From the IMG/VR virus record IMGVR_UViG_3300035181_002344: a DNA stretch of 64,000 bases; one strand, given 5' to 3'. The stretch is from a virus. Position numbers and translations under genes: made by a program. Each line of letters starts with the position of its first letter. The stretch's first letter is position 1. The notes beneath the pieces are model-generated. The model was not told the origin of the DNA. It did not search any database and saw only the letters and a program-made list of their open reading frames with translations. This document shows positions 32,535-53,510 of this stretch, piece after piece.

Positions 32535-33581
32535 CTAATCTTTAAAATAAACAGTGATAATTTTCTTAAGTTTTCGCTCTTTAGAAACAGACAAGATCAT
32601 TTGAGATGCTTGGCTGTATGGAGCTGCAATCGTATCGGCAAAATCATCATATCCGCACATAGAAGAGGAACGAACAACTGTAGTTTTTCCAACTTCTACT
32701 ATTAACTGATAATGGTAATGGCCCGTTAGTACAACGTCTGCATTATGTATTCCATGCAATACAAAAGCTTCTCTATCACTGGATGGTGTTCCCGCAGATT
32801 TTTTCATAATATGTCTGAGATGAAAATTCCATCCTTTGATATTTATATTTATTGACTGTGAATCGCCAAGATTTGTTTTGTATTCATTGGTAACATTTTT
32901 CATTATATTCGGGTCATGCAATTGCAAACTTCTGATTGTCGTTTCCCACGCTTTGGCTACGCCTTTGTCCCAATTGTCATCGGGATGACGTGAGAGTTTT
33001 GATTTTGGCGTTCCGTGGTTACCTGGAACCCAATGAAAATCAACGGGCAATAATTTATCGTATTTTTCTATGAAAAAGTCATTAAGCTTCTTCATATTTT
33101 TATTCAACGATGTAATAAATGCCGCAGTTTGCGCATGTACAATATCATCGGTTAAAAATCCTTGCGTCGGATATGTTGAACCATCGCCTTCTATATGGTC
33201 TCCAAGCATGCATATTTTAACCTGATCGTATGTATCTGGATTGTTATTAATTTCTTCGATTGCTTCATCAAAGAGCTGTGACATTCTTTTATCCGCAATC
33301 TTGAGATTAAATACCTCTTTGTATGGCGGTTTTAGAGAATGCCTTATTTTACCGAAATGGTTATCTGAAATTACTATTACTAAAGCTTCTTTATCGTCGG
33401 ATATTGGTATTTTAGGATGATATATTTTTTTATGATCTCTTAAAAGTGTCTCTAATACATCGAGCCAATTACGACGGATTCTTGTTTTTGAAGCATTATT
33501 TTGTATTTCTAAATTAGAAAGAGTGGAGACAAAGTCGCACTCTTCCTCATTAAGTGGCTCTAATAATTCATTTTCATTCAT
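32535..33581 (-). CDS. Calcineurin-like metallophosphoesterase
   Basis: SDNHFG, GDHIEG, GNHG, GHYH motifs. Confidence 0.85.
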   Translation of the reverse strand: MNENELLEPLNEEECDFVSTLSNLEIQNNASKTRIRRNWLDVLETLLRDHKKIYHPKIPISDDKEALVIVISDNHFGKIRHSLKPPYKEVFNLKIADKRMSQLFDEAIEEINNNPDTYDQVKICMLGDHIEGDGSTYPTQGFLTDDIVHAQTAAFITSLNKNMKKLNDFFIEKYDKLLPVDFHWVPGNHGTPKSKLSRHPDDNWDKGVAKAWETTIRSLQLHDPNIMKNVTNEYKTNLGDSQSININIKGWNFHLRHIMKKSAGTPSSDREAFVLHGIHNADVVLTGHYHYQLIVEVGKTTVVRSSSMCGYDDFADTIAAPYSQASQMILSVSKERKLKKIITVYFKD

Positions 33582-36007
33582 ATTGCTTCCATGTTATAAA
33601 GTGGATCTTTGATTTTTGCCAGTCCTAACAAGTATTCAGCTGTATAACTTTGTCCGATGAATTTACCATATATTTGGTATTTGCCATTTGTTTTAGACAA
33701 TTTATTATATAGCTGGTCTAATAACGGAATTGACCGTATCTCTAAAGGAATATCGTATTTTGTTTGCTCATTCCTTTCTGGCAACTTGATGACTGACATA
33801 CTATTTAACCAATATGATTCTTCAGGGTCGTCCGTTCTTATACCGCTAACTCCAACTGCAGATCCTTCTAGAGTTTTAATCATATTTTTATAACTGGACA
33901 TTTTTCGGCTTGTTATTATATATTTTGATTCTTTGTTATTTAAGGTGCGTACAATAACTAAAGCACCTTTTCCAGATTTGAAAGCAATCACCTTTTTTAC
34001 AATGCCATAGGTCATATTCTCGTTCTTTTTCTTGGCTTCTGCAATTGCTAAGCGATAACGTTCAAATGGATCATATTTAATATTCAAACCGAGAGTTTCT
34101 AATTCGAATGCTGCAAGCTTTTCATCATCATACTCCAGCATTTCAGGAAATGAAATCCATTCCTTTTTGAATGGTAGTAATGACCATTCTTTTGTTTTGT
34201 AATGTTTAATGAATTTAAGCAAATAATCGATATAACGAGTTTCTCCTTCTTTGATTGCAAATACTTGTGATATTTTAATCATTGAAGAAAATGCGCCCGA
34301 TTTTATCATTTGCTCAAGTACATTAGATTTAACATCTGTTCTATATATAAAATCTGACAATGATTTAAATAGCCCGTGTTTTTGTCTTTCTGCCATGAAG
34401 GCTTCTGCTGATTGCACGCCTACATTTTTAATACCGCCTAATCCAAATAATATTGTTTTGTCATCAATAACTCTGAAATTAGCATAACTTCTATTGATAT
34501 CTGGGGGATATAGTTTAATTCCGTAATATTCGGCTTCTTTTAAGAATGCTGTAACGCTTTCTTGATCGCCTATGTCAGTAATAATATTTGCGGTATAAAA
34601 TTCTGCTCTATAATGTGTTTTCAAATATGCTGTTTTAACAGCTAACACTGAGTAAGCAAGAGCATGGGACTTATTAAACGCGTAATTTGAAAAGGATTCC
34701 ATTTCACTCCAAAGAGCATTGATATCATCAAGGGACATCCCTTTTTGCATTGCTTTTTCTGTGAAACGAACCTTTTCTTTGGCCATTTTCTCTGTAATCT
34801 TTTTAGCAACGATCTTTCTAAATTCGTCTCCTTCATGGTCAGAATAACCTGCTAAATCTTGCACTAGCCTTTGAATTTGTTCTTGATATATGAAATATCC
34901 ATAGGTATCTTTGAAGATATCTTTTACCAAAGGAAATCTTTCGCCATGCGGCAGAATATGTGTTGGTTGGCCGCCATTGCGGATAATGATTATTTCCTTT
35001 AAGAATTCCATCGGGCCTGGTCGAAAAGCCGCATTGATAAGTGTGATGTCATTTAAATTTGTTGGCTGAAAATCTCTTACAACTCTTGAAATGCCATCTC
35101 CTTCAAATTGGAAAATACCAAGCAATCTACCTTCGGCCATAAATTTATATGTCGCCGGATCATCTAATGGAATATCGTCCAATGTTAACTTTATTCCTCT
35201 GTTCTCTTCTATCAGCTCAAGACATGTTTTTATCACGTTTAATGTAGATAATCCGAGAAAATCCATTTTTATTAAACCAAGCTCTTCAGCTTCTTGCATC
35301 GTGAATTCGACTATAGGTATGTCGATGCCATCAACAGTTTTATCTTGTTGCCTCCAAACTGGTGCAACTTCGTTGATTGGCACCGATGATATTACATACC
35401 CTGCCGCATGCTGCGAAGGAGATTTTATGAGACCTTCTAGTTTAATAGCGTGGTCAACAATTCTTTTGAGATCTTCATCTTTCTCATATGCTTTTTGGAA
35501 TTCCTTGAGCCCTCCTTTAGGGTCCATTATTTTCTTGAACGTCCAAGCTCGACCTAAAATGGCTGCGGGTATTAGTTTAGCATATTGATCTGCTTTAGCA
35601 AAATCATAGCCTAAAACTCTTGCTGCTGTACGAAGGGCATTTTTAGCCCATATGTAATTTCTTGCGGATAAACCAGCTACTTTGTCACTGCCATACTTAT
35701 CAATAACATATTGAAGCACATGCAGTCTATCGGCATCTGGAAAATCAATATCTATATCAGGTATTGTTCCGCCTTTGTATTTTACTGAACCTAATGGTTT
35801 TTCTTCAGCTATGCCAATTAGATAGGCTACCATTGAATTAACCTGCCGATTATCAACAGTAATTCTTTTTTCTAATATTTCAAGGAAATAGTCTTCCATC
35901 TCGGCTATTTCAATAGCACCTATTTCTTTTTTGTAAGCTTGATATTCAATGTCATTGAGTTGTTTGAGTCTGGGGCTCTGTTGACATATCTGTCTTAGCT
36001 TCTGCAT
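33578..36007 (-). CDS. dnaE: DNA polymerase III alpha, C-terminal part (palm/fingers/HhH)
   Basis: PDIDIDF, HAAG, KMDFLGL, GIFQFE, YQEQ, FNKSHA, PPDIN.S, GLGGIKNVG. Confidence 0.95.
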   Translation of the reverse strand: MQKLRQICQQSPRLKQLNDIEYQAYKKEIGAIEIAEMEDYFLEILEKRITVDNRQVNSMVAYLIGIAEEKPLGSVKYKGGTIPDIDIDFPDADRLHVLQYVIDKYGSDKVAGLSARNYIWAKNALRTAARVLGYDFAKADQYAKLIPAAILGRAWTFKKIMDPKGGLKEFQKAYEKDEDLKRIVDHAIKLEGLIKSPSQHAAGYVISSVPINEVAPVWRQQDKTVDGIDIPIVEFTMQEAEELGLIKMDFLGLSTLNVIKTCLELIEENRGIKLTLDDIPLDDPATYKFMAEGRLLGIFQFEGDGISRVVRDFQPTNLNDITLINAAFRPGPMEFLKEIIIIRNGGQPTHILPHGERFPLVKDIFKDTYGYFIYQEQIQRLVQDLAGYSDHEGDEFRKIVAKKITEKMAKEKVRFTEKAMQKGMSLDDINALWSEMESFSNYAFNKSHALAYSVLAVKTAYLKTHYRAEFYTANIITDIGDQESVTAFLKEAEYYGIKLYPPDINRSYANFRVIDDKTILFGLGGIKNVGVQSAEAFMAERQKHGLFKSLSDFIYRTDVKSNVLEQMIKSGAFSSMIKISQVFAIKEGETRYIDYLLKFIKHYKTKEWSLLPFKKEWISFPEMLEYDDEKLAAFELETLGLNIKYDPFERYRLAIAEAKKKNENMTYGIVKKVIAFKSGKGALVIVRTLNNKESKYIITSRKMSSYKNMIKTLEGSAVGVSGIRTDDPEESYWLNSMSVIKLPERNEQTKYDIPLEIRSIPLLDQLYNKLSKTNGKYQIYGKFIGQSYTAEYLLGLAKIKDPLYNMEAI

Positions 36008-36368
36008 TGTTTTCCTCGCTCAATTCTCTAATAACCGACATAATTTCTGTTTCTTTTTCTGGTGGATAGTTTCCGCGAGAACGCTTTGTAGAAAATAATG
36101 TTTTGTTATTTTTCTCTTTAGCGCTGTATTGAAATGAGCACCCTGTGGTTTTGTGAAACTTTTCAAATAGTTTACGATATTCCTTGTCATTAAATGACCA
36201 TTGACCACCGCATTGTTTACAATAGTATGTATAGGGGCCTTTTTCAAAGCCTTCAGTTGTGGCCGCTTTTAGAAAGTCCAAAAGTGTTTTTTCGCCAAAC
36301 TCTTTTGATAGGTCATTTAATTTGCCGGTAAATATTAGTTCACCAATGTGTGCGTTGTTATTATCCAT
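35952..36368 (-). CDS. Hypothetical Zn-binding protein between the dnaE halves
   Basis: CKQC...H...C; overlaps both neighbours. Confidence 0.55.
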   Translation of the reverse strand: MDNNNAHIGELIFTGKLNDLSKEFGEKTLLDFLKAATTEGFEKGPYTYYCKQCGGQWSFNDKEYRKLFEKFHKTTGCSFQYSAKEKNNKTLFSTKRSRGNYPPEKETEIMSVIRELSEENNAEAKTDMSTEPQTQTTQ

Positions 36369-37698
36369 GTGTTCCTCGGTGTTTCATCCATTGCTCAAAT
36401 GGATATTCTGGAAAAGATATTAGTGGTATTGCGCTTCTGCCTTTATTTAGAAATCGGCCAAAGCTTAAATCGTATTTTATTGGGTCTATATCTGTTATTC
36501 TAAGCGCATAAGATACAAGGCTTCCAGCTGCAGAGCCTCTGCCTGGTCCTACTAGAATTCCATGAGTCTTAGCCCATACAACATAATCAGAAACTATTAA
36601 GAAATAGCTAGCAAAGTTCATCTGAGTGATTATTTGAATCTCATATAGCAATCGATTTTTATATTCCGCGGGAACTTTATTTGTCCCCATTCGTTTAATA
36701 AGACCTTCTATTGCTCGTTTGCGAAATAGTTCGTCTTCATGACGAATATTTCCAAACGTCGGAATTTTATAATTACCGAACTCGAATTCAAAGCTTACTC
36801 TATCTGCTATCTCTAATGTATTATTTATAGCTTCTGGATATTGTGAAAATCTCTGTTTTAAATATTCCTCGTCGGGCAGATAGTAACCATCTCCCGGATA
36901 TTTTCCAAAATCTGGATCATCTAAGGTTGTTTTCTTTCTATCGGCTAACATCATATCGTGTATAGTCACATCTTGGTCAAGCACCATATGTGTGTCGCCG
37001 GTTGCAACTGTTTTAATTTTATATTTGTCGGCGAATTCTAATATTGCTTCTCTAATAATAGCTTCCTGTCTTAACCCATGGTTCATAATCTCTAAATAAA
37101 ATCTGTCGCCGAAAATTTCCTTATGCCATTTAATTACATCTTCTGGACTTTCTTTACGATGTTTATCGCAAATATGTCCATCGCTACAATCAGCGCATTC
37201 TATAGCCGTTAGTGTTTCATAGCCATCTTCGTCTTTGAATGAGATATTTCTTTGGTCCATAATAGTTTTTGATAAATTAGAGGCAAGGCATCCAGATAAT
37301 ACTATTAAGCCTTCATTGTATCTGCGTAATAATTCTCTATCTATGCGAGGCTTACGATAAAACGATTCAGCTTTAAATGATTCGTTTACTAAAGTGCATA
37401 AATTCTGCCAGCCCTTTTTATTCATAGCTATCAATGTTAAATGATAGTAATGGTCTATCTTATTCTCTTTATCAAATCGCGAACGATTAGCAACATAAGC
37501 TTCCATTCCTAAAATAGGCTTAATATCAACGGCTTTCATTGTTTTGTAAAATTCAACTGCTCCAGATAATGTTCCATGATCAGTTAAAGCAATTGCCGGG
37601 TATTTTAGTTCTTTTGCTCGTTTTGCTAAATCTGGAATCTTGGCAACACTATCCATCGTAGAGAATGTCGTGTGCTGATGTAGATTTACGAAGTTCAT
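36361..37698 (-). CDS. dnaE: DNA polymerase III alpha, N-terminal part (PHP domain)
   Basis: LHQHT.FS..D, TDHG, G.EAY, HLTL, GPGRGSAAGSLV.Y.L.IT.IDP...RFLN. Confidence 0.95.
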   Translation of the reverse strand: MNFVNLHQHTTFSTMDSVAKIPDLAKRAKELKYPAIALTDHGTLSGAVEFYKTMKAVDIKPILGMEAYVANRSRFDKENKIDHYYHLTLIAMNKKGWQNLCTLVNESFKAESFYRKPRIDRELLRRYNEGLIVLSGCLASNLSKTIMDQRNISFKDEDGYETLTAIECADCSDGHICDKHRKESPEDVIKWHKEIFGDRFYLEIMNHGLRQEAIIREAILEFADKYKIKTVATGDTHMVLDQDVTIHDMMLADRKKTTLDDPDFGKYPGDGYYLPDEEYLKQRFSQYPEAINNTLEIADRVSFEFEFGNYKIPTFGNIRHEDELFRKRAIEGLIKRMGTNKVPAEYKNRLLYEIQIITQMNFASYFLIVSDYVVWAKTHGILVGPGRGSAAGSLVSYALRITDIDPIKYDLSFGRFLNKGRSAIPLISFPEYPFEQWMKHRGTHG

Positions 37699-42603: not shown

Positions 42604-42691
42604 AGTATTTCTATATTAGTTAAAATGTAATTTATTTTTTTTTGGTGTATTTTCAATGTAAACGCCAAAGGTTTAAACTTATTTTCGTCTT

Positions 42692-43040
42692 AAAAAGTTC
42701 CTTTATACCCCGATTTCTCGGGGTTTAAAAGGAAGACCGTGATACGGCTATTCGCCCTTATGGGCTCTAACAAGCCAGTTATACCACACAGCAGCAGCCG
42801 TTGCTGGCATTTATGACAGCAACAGCCGCTGCTGTTAATTGCTAAGCCATTATTGTTTAATGGTTTCCTCTTAGGCTCCTTTGCAGGAGCCCATCAAAGG
42901 AATCGTGCGACGCACTGTTACTACCAGGACTCTTCGAATCCATCGTGCGGTGTCCATGGTAGAGATCTAGATCCAATGCATCCTATACAGCTACAACTAC
43001 GGTTGTAGCTGTTGCTGATTATGTCTCAGATGTTCTGAGT
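42692..43040 (-). ncRNA. Candidate ~350-nt structured ncRNA, family unknown
   Basis: ORF-free, GC-enriched gap with at least 7 stems; GCAA and GAAA tetraloops and most G-U pairs favour the minus strand; ends in a hairpin plus U-tract. Confidence 0.65.
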
Positions 43041-46417: not shown

Positions 46418-46630
46418 CATGCCTCCACTTTGCGATGGAGGCTTATGGACTACCTCATCTCTGTTGTCTTTTAAACGAGAAGTCCTTTCTCGTTTTAGTC
46501 GCTTGAATGAATTTGCATTCAAGTGAGCATCAGCGTTAGTTCCCTATGCTCGTTCTTCCCTAGCGTCGTGAACTAATTATATAGCCAGCACGAGCAATTT
46601 CGTGAACAGACCATATAATTAGCACGCGCT
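46418..46630 (-). ncRNA. Structured RNA with group I intron-like catalytic core
   Basis: P7 G-C(bulge)-GACUA/UAGUCC, AAAUUGC J3/4-P4, P9 hairpin and terminal G; P1 and P6 not convincingly found. Confidence 0.45.
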
Positions 46631-48418: not shown

Positions 48419-48892
48419 TTAATCTCCTTCTACAATAGCATTTTCTACGCCAAGGATAATATTTTGGTTATCTTCAATAAAACGCTTTAACATCAAAAAT
48501 TCTCCCATTGTTAATGGCACTGATACTTTAAGATCACCAGAGAAGAATGTTATAAAAAATGTTCCCGGATTTTGTCCTGATGCTATCATTAATTTTTTGT
48601 AAATAGCTTGTTCGTCTGCTTTGCCTGCATTTGGATTATGCACTAAGTCTAATTTCATTTCTTGTCCGCGTTGATAATTATATATAGCATTATAGAATAG
48701 CGGATAGTCATTTGAACTAAAAGCAAATGTTATTTTTTTGCTCCAATCATAGACTTTGTCTTTTCCTGGTATTGCGTTTGCGACATTAAATAATAAAGCA
48801 CCTTGTTTTTGTAGAAAGCCATTATTTGCTTTGGCTCTTATAATATCGCATTGTAAGGCTGCACTTTTTTTGTAGATTTGAAAATGATTCAT
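48419..48892 (-). CDS. Whirly-family ssDNA-binding protein
   Basis: YKKSAAL, YDWSKKITFAFS, HNP..GKADE...KKL, VPLT.GEF match the plant Whirly motifs YKGKAAL, YDWSRKQVFSLS, HDP..GKSDE...KVL, IPVT.AEF as recalled. Confidence 0.8.
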   Translation of the reverse strand: MNHFQIYKKSAALQCDIIRAKANNGFLQKQGALLFNVANAIPGKDKVYDWSKKITFAFSSNDYPLFYNAIYNYQRGQEMKLDLVHNPNAGKADEQAIYKKLMIASGQNPGTFFITFFSGDLKVSVPLTMGEFLMLKRFIEDNQNIILGVENAIVEGD

Positions 48893-48893
48893 C

Positions 48894-49154
48894 TTATTCT
48901 TCCTTATTTGTATTATCTTGTTTATAGCTATCGGGTCCCATTAATTTATATAAGTTTTCATGTGGGACTGGTTCTCTTTTGCCTGTGAATTTTCCTCGTT
49001 TTTCTGGATCTAAATGATCACGAGAATAGAAGATAGCGCCACAATTTAGACAAGCTTCATCTGCGTCAAAAGCTTTCCATATTTTGTTAACTTTGTCGCT
49101 ACCACAAAACGGGCATTTGTTATCGAGAATATTTGGTGTTGTGTCAGTTGTCAT
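48894..49154 (-). CDS. Zn-ribbon protein
   Basis: CPFCGS...CLNCG; start overlaps RT stop. Confidence 0.65.
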   Translation of the reverse strand: MTTDTTPNILDNKCPFCGSDKVNKIWKAFDADEACLNCGAIFYSRDHLDPEKRGKFTGKREPVPHENLYKLMGPDSYKQDNTNKEE

Positions 49155-49992
49155 TTAAGATTCTCCGTGCAAGTTTTTGTAAATAAAAATAGTTTTTCTT
49201 GTTATCTGCTAGATTAAGTTGTTCGATTTTTCCACGTATATGCGGATTGATCTGACGAATATTAATTAGCTCTTTGATAATGTTCTGAATATATTGACGC
49301 TCAATATTTCGTTTAACATTAACCACGATGCCTAAAACTAATTGTCTTTGATAATAAGGCATCACTTTACTTTTTCGTAAGTTTAGTTCGAAACCATATC
49401 GCTTACAAATATCGTTAATAATCGATATAGTTTCTTTTGGAACAGAGTTACCAGAGATATATAGATTATCTCCATAATTTGAATAACTCCATTGGTTTCG
49501 ATCGCATATTTCCTGTATACTAACATCAATCGGTTGTCGTATAGCATTAGCGATATGTGGAGATGTTATGAAACCTTGTGGAAGTTTTCCATTGTACGTT
49601 AATAATTCAATAAAATCTTGTAAATCAATGTTAAGCAAATTAAGTAACTCGGGGATTTTCTGATTATAAACAAATAGCCCGATTAGATGATCTTTCGTAA
49701 TGTTATCATAGAAATTCTTAATATCGGCTTCTAAAACGTATCGTTTGCCAACATGAATATTAGCACAGTCTCCCCTTGATCTTCCTTTTATCCAAGCATA
49801 GCTTGCATGATGAATATTAAAAACATTGTTATCAATGAAATAGTCAAGAATATATTTCTGTGCCTTTTTATATTCTGAATTTGGAGCAATAATATGACGA
49901 CGTTTTATTTTGCCTTTCTTTTTTCTATGCTGCACATACGTTGATACATAATTTGCTTTATTGGCAAGTATATTCTTTATAAGCTGACGCAT
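49144..49992 (-). CDS. Minimal retron-type reverse transcriptase with YGDN motif
   Basis: R.I.AP...K..Q, CANIH (NAxxH region X), ADIKNFYDNI, LPQG..TSP.IAN, YGDN, N..K, VLGIVVN (VTG region Y). Confidence 0.9.
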   Translation of the reverse strand: MRQLIKNILANKANYVSTYVQHRKKKGKIKRRHIIAPNSEYKKAQKYILDYFIDNNVFNIHHASYAWIKGRSRGDCANIHVGKRYVLEADIKNFYDNITKDHLIGLFVYNQKIPELLNLLNIDLQDFIELLTYNGKLPQGFITSPHIANAIRQPIDVSIQEICDRNQWSYSNYGDNLYISGNSVPKETISIINDICKRYGFELNLRKSKVMPYYQRQLVLGIVVNVKRNIERQYIQNIIKELINIRQINPHIRGKIEQLNLADNKKNYFYLQKLARRILNDN

Positions 49993-49997
49993 GTTAT

Positions 49998-50804
49998 TTA
50001 CGATGCTTTTTGTAATAAAGTTGCTAAATCAAACTCTTTTTCCACGAATGGGTTAGTATTCCATTCAATAAATCTCACTTTGCCGGTTCTATTAAATAAT
50101 ACCATGTCATATTTAAGGTCGTTGTCAACATACATAGAATAGACCATATTAGTTATCAGTGTTCCGGCGAGTAAATTTACAGCAAGAGATTGTGGATTGA
50201 GTAATGCATTGACGGCACAATTTTGTCTTTGTTCTCTTTCGACTGCTTCTTCTTTCTCTGCTTCTTCATTATTAAATTCATGCGGATAAACATCAACAAC
50301 TGTTCTTGACTTAGTAATTAACGAGTCATAATAAACTATTTGTCCAAATGTATCGGTATTTCCGCAGCTTAACCATGCTATTGATTGAGAATTAGTAAAC
50401 CGATTTCTTGATCTAACAAATTCATTAATTATTAAGCGTGTACGGATATTATCTACAGTATCTATAATCAAATATGTGTCTGGATTGCTATAATATCCTG
50501 ATCTATATGGATCGCAGATAGAATAGATATTATCTTTATCTAAAAAGCTATTTATATATGATACCTTTACTCCAAAAGCAAAGCCATAGCGTTTAGCTAA
50601 TACTTCTGCTTTATATTCTCCAATATCATCGACAACAAAATTTTGCCGATTACAATTTTTCTCTTCTACTTTATCTGCGTCCATAATTATAATATCCGGA
50701 GCATTAGGAAGATGACTAGCCATTCTAATGATATTTGGTATAGCATATCCTCCTGTTCCGCCAGCACCAACAAATAATATTGTGCTTCTTTTTGAGACGA
50801 CCAT
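49998..50804 (-). CDS. E1/ThiF ubiquitin-activating-like enzyme
   Basis: VGAGGTGG, D.D.VEEKN.NRQ, KAEVLA.RY, VDN...R, CA......Q...N catalytic Cys region. Confidence 0.92.
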   Translation of the reverse strand: MVVSKRSTILFVGAGGTGGYAIPNIIRMASHLPNAPDIIIMDADKVEEKNCNRQNFVVDDIGEYKAEVLAKRYGFAFGVKVSYINSFLDKDNIYSICDPYRSGYYSNPDTYLIIDTVDNIRTRLIINEFVRSRNRFTNSQSIAWLSCGNTDTFGQIVYYDSLITKSRTVVDVYPHEFNNEEAEKEEAVEREQRQNCAVNALLNPQSLAVNLLAGTLITNMVYSMYVDNDLKYDMVLFNRTGKVRFIEWNTNPFVEKEFDLATLLQKAS

Positions 50805-50806
50805 AT

Positions 50807-51751
50807 TTATCTTCTCCTGTTTTTGTAATAATCCTCGTATCCGAAGCCATATTGCATTGGATCTAAATAAGTGTGTATGCTTTCACTTGCAGGTGGATCT
50901 CCATAGATTGGTCTTGTGGATATTATTTCGTCGTCAAATAAATCGCCTTGAATAACTCTATCTTTAGTTTTGTAATCATTATTATTTGCTAGCCATTCGT
51001 TTACTCTATTTTCATAGAGACGATTAGACAACTTGTTTTCATAATCACCAAACATAGTAATATCAAATTCGTGTTTCCACAAAGGCTCAAAAACATCTTC
51101 TAAATTAAGATCAACTTTTTTATTTCCGAGTGCAAATCTTATTTGATATGTCGGATATATTTTAAATATATCGCCAATTACTAAGTGAATACTTTCTAAA
51201 TTTCGATGATCGGCATCATCAACTGCTGAAAATCTACCAGTCATTGTATGATGAGAATGTGCTTGTACTACTAAAATATTATCTTTATCCGACGGAAAAT
51301 TATCATGTTCTATATCCCATTCTACAAGAGCGCCTGAGATAATTTGTTTTGGAATCCAGAAAAAGAATTCTTGTCTTATTTTATTCCAATAAATTCGCAC
51401 ATAAACTTCTGTCTTATATTTTTGATATACCACACGGAACCATTCCAATATATCTAAAAACATTTTAGCTGGAACTTTTGGCACCTTTAATTGTATGCCT
51501 TCTTTTTGGTATTCGCCATTTACTATTCCCTTAAAATCATAACTAACTTCTTTAATAACAAAACGAGCTAAATCAGTTTCTTTAACAGTATATATACCGT
51601 CGTTTTGAATAAGCGTAGTTGAATTTACTCCCGGTTGAAAAGTATATGTTCCAATTTGTAGTACATGGCTATTATTTATTTGATTCCGTAGTTCATTTAT
51701 TGCTTGAAGTTCACTATCTGTGAAACCATTGTTTTGATTTTTCTTAGCCAT
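50807..51751 (-). CDS. JAB/MPN metallopeptidase (deubiquitinase-like; likely start 51751)
   Basis: TE...HSHH.M...FS..DD.D JAMM motif; AAGGAG RBS. Confidence 0.9.
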   Translation of the reverse strand: MAKKNQNNGFTDSELQAINELRNQINNSHVLQIGTYTFQPGVNSTTLIQNDGIYTVKETDLARFVIKEVSYDFKGIVNGEYQKEGIQLKVPKVPAKMFLDILEWFRVVYQKYKTEVYVRIYWNKIRQEFFFWIPKQIISGALVEWDIEHDNFPSDKDNILVVQAHSHHTMTGRFSAVDDADHRNLESIHLVIGDIFKIYPTYQIRFALGNKKVDLNLEDVFEPLWKHEFDITMFGDYENKLSNRLYENRVNEWLANNNDYKTKDRVIQGDLFDDEIISTRPIYGDPPASESIHTYLDPMQYGFGYEDYYKNRRR

Positions 51752-51765
51752 ATTTTGTTCTCCTT

Positions 51766-52425
51766 TTACCATAATTTTATTGCTTCTTTAATTGTTTTTC
51801 CTGACATTTGTCCACTTCTTAATATGTGAGAGGCCTCAACCCATTCTTGCTCTGATTGAAATGTAATGTTATTGACACGGCGGATATCATCCATATTAAC
51901 CAAATCCGTATTTCTTTCGGCATTAAACCACATATTAATAATTGTATTTAGTTCATGTAAACCATGAATACTTCTTAATTCTCTAGTTAAAACATCTCCC
52001 CAGCACAAACGTGCATCACCATAAACATTATTTAAGCGAACTTGGTATATTCTGGTATTTTCTCGTGGCGGATTAAAACTACTAAATATCGACGTATTAA
52101 TAACTTTATACATATTATTCTCTACCCGCAAATCAAATAAGAAATACAGATACGGATAGTGTAAATGATATTGTATATTAGAATATGTAAAATCAAGATA
52201 TTGCGTATTTCTACACACTAATACCTTCATGTTTACATCTTTAACTTCATACCATACTATCCATAGAGGCATAATCATACTTGATTCTTCTTTAATACTA
52301 AATAATTGCCTAAGCTCATCTATGGAAACTATTTTAGGTTCGTAAATATTGGCGCTTCCTTGTTTATTGATATTGTCTATAATCGCTATACGATCATATA
52401 CTGTTATATTAGCTATTTTGTTCAT
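51766..52425 (-). CDS. Prokaryotic E2 (family D/PRTRC-B-like) conjugating enzyme
   Basis: P.L.F...Y...L.NVY.D.RLCWG...F....N.DL motif with catalytic Cys. Confidence 0.8.
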   Translation of the reverse strand: MNKIANITVYDRIAIIDNINKQGSANIYEPKIVSIDELRQLFSIKEESSMIMPLWIVWYEVKDVNMKVLVCRNTQYLDFTYSNIQYHLHYPYLYFLFDLRVENNMYKVINTSIFSSFNPPRENTRIYQVRLNNVYGDARLCWGDVLTRELRSIHGLHELNTIINMWFNAERNTDLVNMDDIRRVNNITFQSEQEWVEASHILRSGQMSGKTIKEAIKLW

Positions 52426-53044
52426 CTGATAACTCCCTGATTAAAATCTTATGTATAAAATCCAGCGCTATGAAATATGATAATAAAGAAAAAGCAACCC
52501 TATGATTCCATATTGGAGATGAAGTAATAATAAGCGGATATCGAGTCTGCTCTTCTAATCCTGCATTTACAATTTGTATTAAGTAATTTGGTGCAGTATT
52601 ATCATCGCCGATATATTTCATAAAATCATTACGCAGAACATTCCATGCTTCTGCATATTTTGCTTTACCTTCACTTGTATCAACGATATTGTAAAATGTT
52701 GATGCTATAAAATTAGTAATAAAACGTGATAGCACTAATTGTAGCTCATAGCCCCTAGCTCGTGTTGTTGTTGCAGATGTTGAAAATGAACATCCGCCAA
52801 TATTTAAGACTGTTTGATGATGAGCTGCTGAATATTGTTCAATAAGAGGATTCATATTTTCTCTATAATATTTTTCAACAGCTTTAATAATTGTAAACAT
52901 TATTCTTCTGTTGTAACTTGCGGTTAATTGCCATTGGTTGCGTGTAGTAATAAATCTTTTATCTAATGCGTATTTAACCAGCAGCAATAGCCGTAAGTTT
53001 GTTGATACGTTTTGCATGTTAGCAATTACTTTGTCGTCATACAT
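52409..53044 (-). CDS. Hypothetical protein in Ubl operon
   Basis: Overlaps both neighbours. Confidence 0.55.
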   Translation of the reverse strand: MYDDKVIANMQNVSTNLRLLLLVKYALDKRFITTRNQWQLTASYNRRIMFTIIKAVEKYYRENMNPLIEQYSAAHHQTVLNIGGCSFSTSATTTRARGYELQLVLSRFITNFIASTFYNIVDTSEGKAKYAEAWNVLRNDFMKYIGDDNTAPNYLIQIVNAGLEEQTRYPLIITSSPIWNHRVAFSLLSYFIALDFIHKILIRELSDEQNS

Positions 53045-53294
53045 AGTTTTTACTCATTTTAAATGTTGATTGAACATAACGTAATCTATCAGTAATAATA
53101 TAATTGTAGTTTATTTCAAAATTAGTTAGACTTTTTGCTTCTTCCGCTGTCATTTCTGCGATTCTCCGTAATGATGGATCAGCACATAACTCATATAAGA
53201 GTTTAAGTTGAGGATTATCTTGTAATCCTGCGAATTTGGTTAAAATATCTTGTCCGGTTAACATAAGATCTCCGTAATAAAAAAGCCCCTCCAC
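53037..53294 (-). CDS. Hypothetical protein in Ubl operon
   Basis: 85 aa, overlaps downstream ORF. Confidence 0.5.
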   Translation of the reverse strand: MEGLFYYGDLMLTGQDILTKFAGLQDNPQLKLLYELCADPSLRRIAEMTAEEAKSLTNFEINYNYIITDRLRYVQSTFKMSKNYV

Positions 53295-53321
53295 ATAACG
53301 TAGAGGGACTTTGGTTGTGGA

Positions 53322-53510
53322 TTATTTACCAAGTTTGCCAGCTTTCATTTTGAAATTGATAACTTTGTTTCCAGAATCATCTGTATAAACTTCTGCTACT
53401 GTGTCATCAATTTCTGGTGCATGACCACGCAATGCAGCTTTAGCAGCATCTACACTAATGTCACCTGGAACTGTTGCTGTCATATCAGCATATTTTACGA
53501 TTGTTGCCAT
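53322..53510 (-). CDS. Ubiquitin-like small protein (PRTRC-C-like)
   Basis: 62 aa; PEI..A...V.F..KAG.LG-K tail; AAGGAG RBS; upstream of E2-JAB-E1. Confidence 0.75.
   Translation of the reverse strand: MATIVKYADMTATVPGDISVDAAKAALRGHAPEIDDTVAEVYTDDSGNKVINFKMKAGKLGK

Follow-up and report, generated by a model that had tools for sequence, protein, structure and literature searches.

The locus described here lies in a 64,000-nt stretch of DNA (the window) that belongs to a single IMG/VR virus record (IMGVR_UViG_3300035181_002344), which is linear, measures 154,304 bp and has a CheckV completeness of about 75%. The replication genes of this phage comprise a split DnaE-like replicative polymerase, a primase-helicase, a UvsX-like recombinase and a class II-type ribonucleotide reductase; a classical OB-fold SSB is encoded elsewhere in the same genome, and PhoH was not found in its sequenced part (the 154,304-bp record). 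No close cultured relative was found among 50,697 GenBank phage records, in which the polymerase had at most 36% identity to anything and the Whirly-fold protein of Table 1 had zero matches. The gene of interest encodes a retron-type reverse transcriptase (RT), the sole RT of the record, and it is placed between a ThiF/E1-like gene and a small Zn-ribbon gene; the features of the locus are collected in Table 1.

Table 1. Genes and RT motifs at the locus, with positions numbered on the window.
Feature	Position	Strand	Basis or remark
Retron-type RT, member of the YGDN clade, 282 aa	49144..49992	-	Open reading frame, Pfam, PADLOC, profile and fold
Motif C YGDN (Y173, G174, D175, N176; codons tat gga gat aat), with AAT (Asn) in place of the second catalytic Asp	49465..49476	-	Read from the sequence
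Motif A catalytic Asp, D90	49723..49725	-	Asp in 29/29 clade members
Motif D Lys, K207	49372..49374	-	Lys in 29/29 clade members
Zn-ribbon protein, 86 aa, CxxC...CxxCG; constant partner gene of the RT	48894..49154	-	Overlaps the RT stop by 11 nt
ThiF/E1-like gene, PRTRC_ThiF type, directly upstream of the RT; context, with no functional link implied	49998..50804	-	
Whirly-fold ssDNA-binding protein, downstream of the Zn ribbon; also in RT-less relatives, hence context	48419..48892	-	

Regarding the RT itself, direct reading of the sequence bore out the open reading frame and the motifs listed in a preliminary description of this DNA, namely motif A, LPQG (residues 137-140), region X as CANIH, region Y as VLG, and YGDN at motif C; the steric-gate aromatic, Y95, lies five residues past D90. 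The lack of adjacent non-coding space given in the same description is equally correct, with the RT start ATG placed 5 nt beyond the ThiF stop and the downstream end overlapping the Zn-ribbon ORF. Two other terms need adjustment: the gene was called an orphan, which is inexact because the Zn-ribbon gene is its constant partner, and the thumb was called very short, which holds in the sense of compact and not in the sense of missing or truncated, since the model of the protein has three C-terminal helices (residues 232-281) and Foldseek aligns 287-315 columns to retron RTs.

As for its family, the RT protein matches Pfam RVT_1 with an E-value of 5.5e-18 (65.9 bits, the cut-off being 29.6) and the PADLOC retron RT models III-A, X, Ec107-like and II-A with values from 2e-44 to 3e-41. 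The family profile, compared with the solved retron RTs Kva2, Ec86, Ec67, Ec78, Ec83 and Eco8, gave 7e-38 to 2e-22, with Kva2 (6.7e-38) and Ec86 (1e-34) as the best matches, as against about 1e-16 with group II intron RTs and about 1e-8 with DRT2; across the model comparisons, the values were 1e-30 to 1e-44 for retrons, 1e-12 to 1e-16 for group II and 2e-6 for Drt3a. The fold points the same way: with an AF2 model built on the family alignment (pLDDT 95, pTM 0.88), the top 17 PDB matches listed by Foldseek were all retron RTs, with TM scores of 0.62-0.77 over nearly the full length, and the scores with the RTs of retrons Eco2, Ec86, Eco7 and I-A were 0.72-0.77. A DGR type finds no counterpart in these data: the DGR RT structure came far below the retron RTs (Foldseek rank 26), and no long direct repeat pair occurs near the RT.

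The most conserved retron-specific residues are the histidine of region X and the glycine of region Y (PMC7736814). Both are shared with the retron RTs, as CAxxH and xLG in the clade; compared with the NAXXH and VTG signatures, CANIH and VLG keep the H and the G, and the same CAH/VLG variants are present in some retron-type RTs with YxDD. The three-Asp set of the RT superfamily is incomplete, with D90 and D175 present and N176 as the third residue. The protein also misses the curated NCBIfam cut-offs for retron RTs (134 versus 235 bits for St85, 110 versus 450 for Ec67, 104 versus 600 for TIR-RT), and its nearest bacterial-type relatives are less than 40% identical. Judged by sequence and by predicted fold, it is a retron-type RT that falls outside every curated retron family.

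The second aspartate of YxDD is, to our knowledge, treated as an invariant of RTs, and the conservation of the Asn was followed through an exhaustive HMMER search of 1.84 billion cluster representatives, which returned 22 proteins below 1e-30 and then a sharp drop to ordinary retron-like RTs; in IMG/VR, the window's own record was the only source of a close clade member. Motif columns were taken from the HMM alignment for the clade (n = 29, 32-96% identity) and for the nearest other hits (n = 139). In the clade, motif C reads YGDN in 25 members and FGDN, FGDD, WIDD and YGDD in one each, which gives [YF]GDN in 26/29, whereas the nearest retron-type RTs outside the clade have DD in 137 cases, DN in one and DE in one. 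The rest of the active site is kept: 29/29 clade members have the catalytic Asp of motif A, the first Asp of motif C, the Lys of motif D and an aromatic steric gate (F or Y), and Q139, G140 and S144 of motif B are invariant or near-invariant across the 26 aligned family sequences. In a maximum-likelihood tree (92 sequences), the family groups with the more distant P0088, P0069 and P0106 and with an IMG/VR RT (L041), and a branch with an SH-aLRT of 99 sets this group apart from 62 YxDD RTs.

These data bear on the possibility that the Asn is a sequencing error or that the gene is a decaying pseudogene, a view that draws on nothing beyond the prior that YxDD is near-invariant. The same motif recurs in independent assemblies from many samples and at 32-96% identity, the ORF is intact and yields a model with pLDDT 95, and the dN/dS of the RT, calculated against a 96%-identical relative from another sample, is 0.10, compared with 0.04-0.12 for five neighbour genes; the clade-wide [YF]GDN and this ratio refute it, leaving a chance that is practically nil. 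The preliminary description had itself stated that its reading would fail if all homologues had YxDD and this copy displayed relaxed selection or an error at that codon; what is found is a motif conserved among the homologues and a gene under purifying selection. On the evidence of the alignments, YGDN is a real, selected feature of a phage-borne clade.

Three members of the group carry DD with synteny unchanged: P0020 branches from within the DN members, P0036 branches close to the base, and P0106 belongs to the sister group. The unchanged synteny of these members therefore suggests that Asp and Asn are interchangeable at this site, as expected of a working active-site position; by sequence comparison, an exchange of this kind with no other change would be harder to explain at a dead position than at a working one.

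Asn at the second position of motif C is also found sporadically in other retron-type RTs. One case is the YADN of an RT outside the YGDN clade, on a large IMG/VR viral contig (L011:5798-6733), another is FSDN on a large IMG/VR viral contig (L041:9956-10897), which groups with the sister clade on a long, unsure branch, and a third is the YCDN of P0122, whose gene adjoins an HTH gene on a short metagenomic contig.

Regarding the gene context, 11 distinct contexts from metagenomic contigs were compared (window/L001, L004, L007, the P0023 contig, L048, L049, L055, L058, L057, L060 and L061). As far as the contigs reach, the order is constant and consists of an E1-like ThiF gene that abuts or overlaps the RT, the RT, a protein of 68-94 aa and a Whirly-fold protein; for L057 and L061, no Pfam hit is on record for the gene at the Whirly position. 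The pair formed by the RT and the Zn ribbon is present in all 10 contexts that extend past the RT, sister clade included, the eleventh (L048) ending there. The Zn-ribbon protein is homologous in the 8/8 loci aligned and has an invariant CxxC...CxxCG-x2-F, L057 of the sister clade included; beyond these phages, a database search gave no further homologues, its Pfam and NCBIfam matches are weak and generic, and it has no PADLOC hit. On the longer contigs the block runs from a gene of about 1030 aa through a small candidate ubiquitin-like protein, E2-like, JAB-like, ThiF, RT, Zn-ribbon and Whirly genes to further genes and a ribonucleotide reductase; the RT and its partner are located in the replication and nucleotide-metabolism region of large phages. 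The ThiF and JAB-like proteins match models of the PRTRC cassette (PRTRC_ThiF, 4e-24; PRTRC_A, 3.6e-11).

Two more distant phages, L052 and L053, found through their Whirly protein (31-32% identity), keep the JAB-like, ThiF and Whirly genes; in both, a PhoH-like ATPase (L052:7104-7988 and L053:6867-7733) fills the slot that the RT has between ThiF and Whirly, and L053 has a small non-homologous ORF where the Zn ribbon would be. From the PhoH in this slot it follows, as far as gene order can tell, that the RT and the Zn ribbon are a lineage-specific two-gene cassette, one that was acquired a single time, at a variable slot of a conserved backbone, and passed on vertically from then on. We do not adopt the view that the RT is functionally part of the Ubl/E1/E2/JAB cassette, or works with the Whirly protein, given that L052 and L053 keep JAB, ThiF and Whirly with PhoH and not with the RT; it is concluded that the Ubl cassette and Whirly are neighbours of the RT rather than demonstrated partners.

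The ubiquitin-like conjugation set deserves mention in its own right. At 50807-53510, on the minus strand of the window, it comprises a 62-aa candidate Ubl ending in GK, two ORFs of unknown type, an E2-like gene (weak Prok-E2_D match) and a JAB-like gene, together with ThiF, and it is kept across the whole phage lineage, RT-less relatives included.

As for a template, the presence of a contiguous msr-msd gene is what defines a retron (PMC7736814), and there is no room for one at the window locus or in 10/11 contexts. Rfam gave no match at the gathering score in the window and nothing relevant at E<=5 between 40 and 54 kb; in four related loci, it gave nothing relevant at the gathering score or at permissive E-values, and ARAGORN found no tRNA in the window. 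No associated effector gene of a known retron type was found, the only constant partner being the 86-aa Zn-ribbon protein. Among the family members, only L049 has a genuine gap upstream of its RT (L049:6903-7128), where 225 nt form two long predicted hairpins with a z of -6.6 relative to shuffled controls; on sequence grounds, this gap could be a retained ncRNA.

The L049 gap, which lies directly upstream of the RT, is one of the elements that speak for a phage-carried exclusion or defence module of retron-like type, in which the RT would act with an unlinked ncRNA, and with the Zn ribbon as effector or sensor, against competing phages or mobile elements. Retron RTs usually act in RT-ncRNA-effector systems, temperate phages carry retron cargo (P2-like hits), and the same speculation has been published for jumbo phages with solo retron-like RTs (bioRxiv 10.1101/2020.12.14.422802). 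However, the cassette has no recognisable toxic effector domain, the Zn ribbon having only weak and generic zinc-ribbon matches, a contiguous ncRNA would find no room in the other 10 of the 11 contexts, and accessory defence cargo is usually patchy and not fixed in a replication operon, all of which makes such a module rather improbable.

The two most structured intergenic regions of the 154-kb record are 46429-46628 (minus strand; z -7.2) and 42604-42852 (z -8.3), which lie on either side of the ribonucleotide reductase, at 2.5 and 6.5 kb downstream of the RT; the latter has a perfect GC-rich hairpin of 19 bp and, after it, several more hairpins. The two regions could act as processing sites, terminators or a replication origin, or encode ncRNAs. 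A role as RT template was considered and set aside, as no link to the RT could be made for either: relatives are not uniform at the syntenic gaps, these being weakly structured in L004, missing at the first position in L058, and occupied after the reductase by tRNA genes in L049; the two regions are template candidates only. The L049 stretch in question (L049:15641-16126) is non-coding and contains a tRNA cluster, with two matches of 116-119 nt.

A different kind of signal occurs within the coding sequence: the 12-kb alignment with L001, the 96% relative, diverges least over 48980-49430, a segment made up of the 3' third of the RT gene and the 5' half of the Zn-ribbon gene, with 1-4 differences per 150 nt versus the usual 8-20. 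No unusual fold was found in this segment (z -1.8 and -0.7), and a recombination mosaic is as likely an explanation of its low divergence as an embedded RNA.

The reading preferred here, with a probability of roughly 0.45 and hence somewhat short of even odds, is that the protein would be an active DNA polymerase with altered metal chemistry that works with the Zn-ribbon protein on a non-adjacent template; it is built from the sequence comparisons and from analogy with a yeast enzyme. The RT would derive from a retron and, paired with its dedicated Zn-ribbon protein in a two-gene cassette, would have been inherited vertically in a lineage of uncultured phages of large size (at least 150 kb), presumably transcribed by read-through from the E1-like gene. 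It would still be a DNA polymerase, with the motif A Asp, the first motif C Asp, the QG..SP of motif B, the motif D Lys and the dNTP-selecting steric gate intact, and with only the second motif C Asp replaced by Asn.

The analogy is with the Ty1 RT mutant D211N, in which the second D of YXDD is changed: this enzyme is processive, with a kpol 223-fold lower, an unchanged Kd for dNTP, a preference for Mn2+ and an altered handling of pyrophosphate (PMC2148107). By the same token, the phage RT may have slower catalysis, a preference for Mn2+ and an altered handling of pyrophosphate, and such properties would suit limited or regulated DNA synthesis. Since template and primer do not seem to be encoded beside the gene, they would be supplied from elsewhere in the phage genome, by an mRNA or by the host, and the Zn-ribbon protein would be the likeliest nucleic-acid-binding accessory. 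The full conservation of the other catalytic residues and the behaviour of Ty1 D211N (PMC2148107) agree with the preliminary proposal, in which the RT would be active, with its chemistry altered and its template distant, and from both we infer activity, as we do the metal preference, the role of the partner and any product.

In retroviral RTs, however, a mutation at any one of the three aspartates is severely damaging to the enzyme (PMC2148107), which counts against an active polymerase and lends weight to a second, clearly less probable explanation, that of a pseudo-enzyme in which the RT fold would be kept as a non-polymerising module for binding RNA or ssDNA; it could serve as an anti-retron decoy for host retron ncRNA, msDNA or effectors, or as a regulator or chaperone of phage RNA. 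The change from D to N removes one metal ligand, no template lies next to the gene, phages are under pressure from retron defences, and a non-catalytic binder of nucleic acids could also keep the residues of the pocket under selection. On the other side, the catalytic residues retained in every clade member include the general-acid Lys and the dNTP steric gate, which mere binding does not require, and DD variants occur inside the clade in an unchanged context. The low identity to the nearest bacterial-type relatives (below 40%) is a further point against it. A decoy, in particular, should be sporadic and track the retrons of the hosts, whereas the gene is inherited vertically, in one fixed slot, in phages whose RTs are down to 32% identical; the decoy put forward in the preliminary description fits this pattern poorly, and no positive evidence for it emerged.

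Returning to the active polymerase, a bolder version of it would make the RT and the Zn ribbon a core replication-associated enzyme pair of the phage lineage, engaged neither in defence nor in counter-defence. Such a pair might make, for example, short DNA primers, end-repair or telomere-like products, perhaps with the small structured or tRNA-like RNAs of the phage as template, and the Asn would tune a slow, limited and Mn2+-dependent synthesis; this is offered as a speculation with a small chance of being right.

Among known systems, the bacterial retron RTs (Ec86/Eco1, Eco2/Ec67, Eco7/Ec78 and Kva2) are the best match by sequence and fold, and they have a similar size of about 280-330 aa. 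The phage RT differs from them in having YGDN and not Y[ACSV]DD, in the lack of a contiguous msr-msd and of a recognisable effector, and in the location of its gene in the replication region of a large phage. The natural xDN motif GDN is that of the mononegavirus L proteins; these are RNA polymerases, whereas the phage protein keeps the dNTP-selecting steric-gate aromatic of RTs. As for Ty1 D211N, the swap of Asn for the second motif C Asp is the same, but that enzyme is a laboratory mutant unable to transpose, whereas the Asn described here is natural and selected.

The solo retron-like RTs of jumbo and metagenomic phages (MarsHill gp206 and the viral 'Retrons-like' clusters RTC3 and RTC5) are likewise of retron type, occur in large virulent phages, have no DGR features and no known function; MarsHill gp206 differs in its length (501 aa), in an extra N-terminal domain and in having 1.2 kb of non-coding sequence beside its gene. 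Retron-type RTs are also present in several IMG/VR phages (96-208 kb), with at most 35% identity to that of the window and mostly with YxDD, the exceptions being the YADN and FSDN proteins mentioned above. They do not have the arrangement ThiF-RT-Zn ribbon-Whirly; L023 alone has JAB and ThiF, about 5-7 kb upstream of its RT.

Retron-like RTs in large phages and in viral metagenomes have thus already been reported, with no function assigned, and the searchable literature yielded no description of a clade-wide YGDN motif, of an obligatory Zn-ribbon partner or of a fixed position next to PRTRC-type E1 and Whirly genes. What is added here is a natural clade of at least 29 sequence clusters that has Asn at the second YxDD position, is under purifying selection and preserves the rest of the active site; it offers a natural setting in which to study the capabilities of an xDN reverse transcriptase. 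The clade is also a concrete and recurrent case in which large virulent phages have a retron-type RT at a fixed place in their replication region, and the constant Zn-ribbon partner makes it a defined two-protein unit for expression and testing.

Finally, two observations concern the neighbouring replication and nucleotide-metabolism genes. The DnaE-like Pol III alpha, at 33578-37698 on the minus strand, is split into ORFs of 445 and 809 aa, each matching phrog_405 end to end and the two separated by an ORF of 138 aa (35952-36368). The ribonucleotide reductase of the window has 927 aa and no insert; that of L058 has 1067 aa and an intein-splicing domain, and that of L049 has 1238 aa, with a match to the window's enzyme that is interrupted by about 1 kb.
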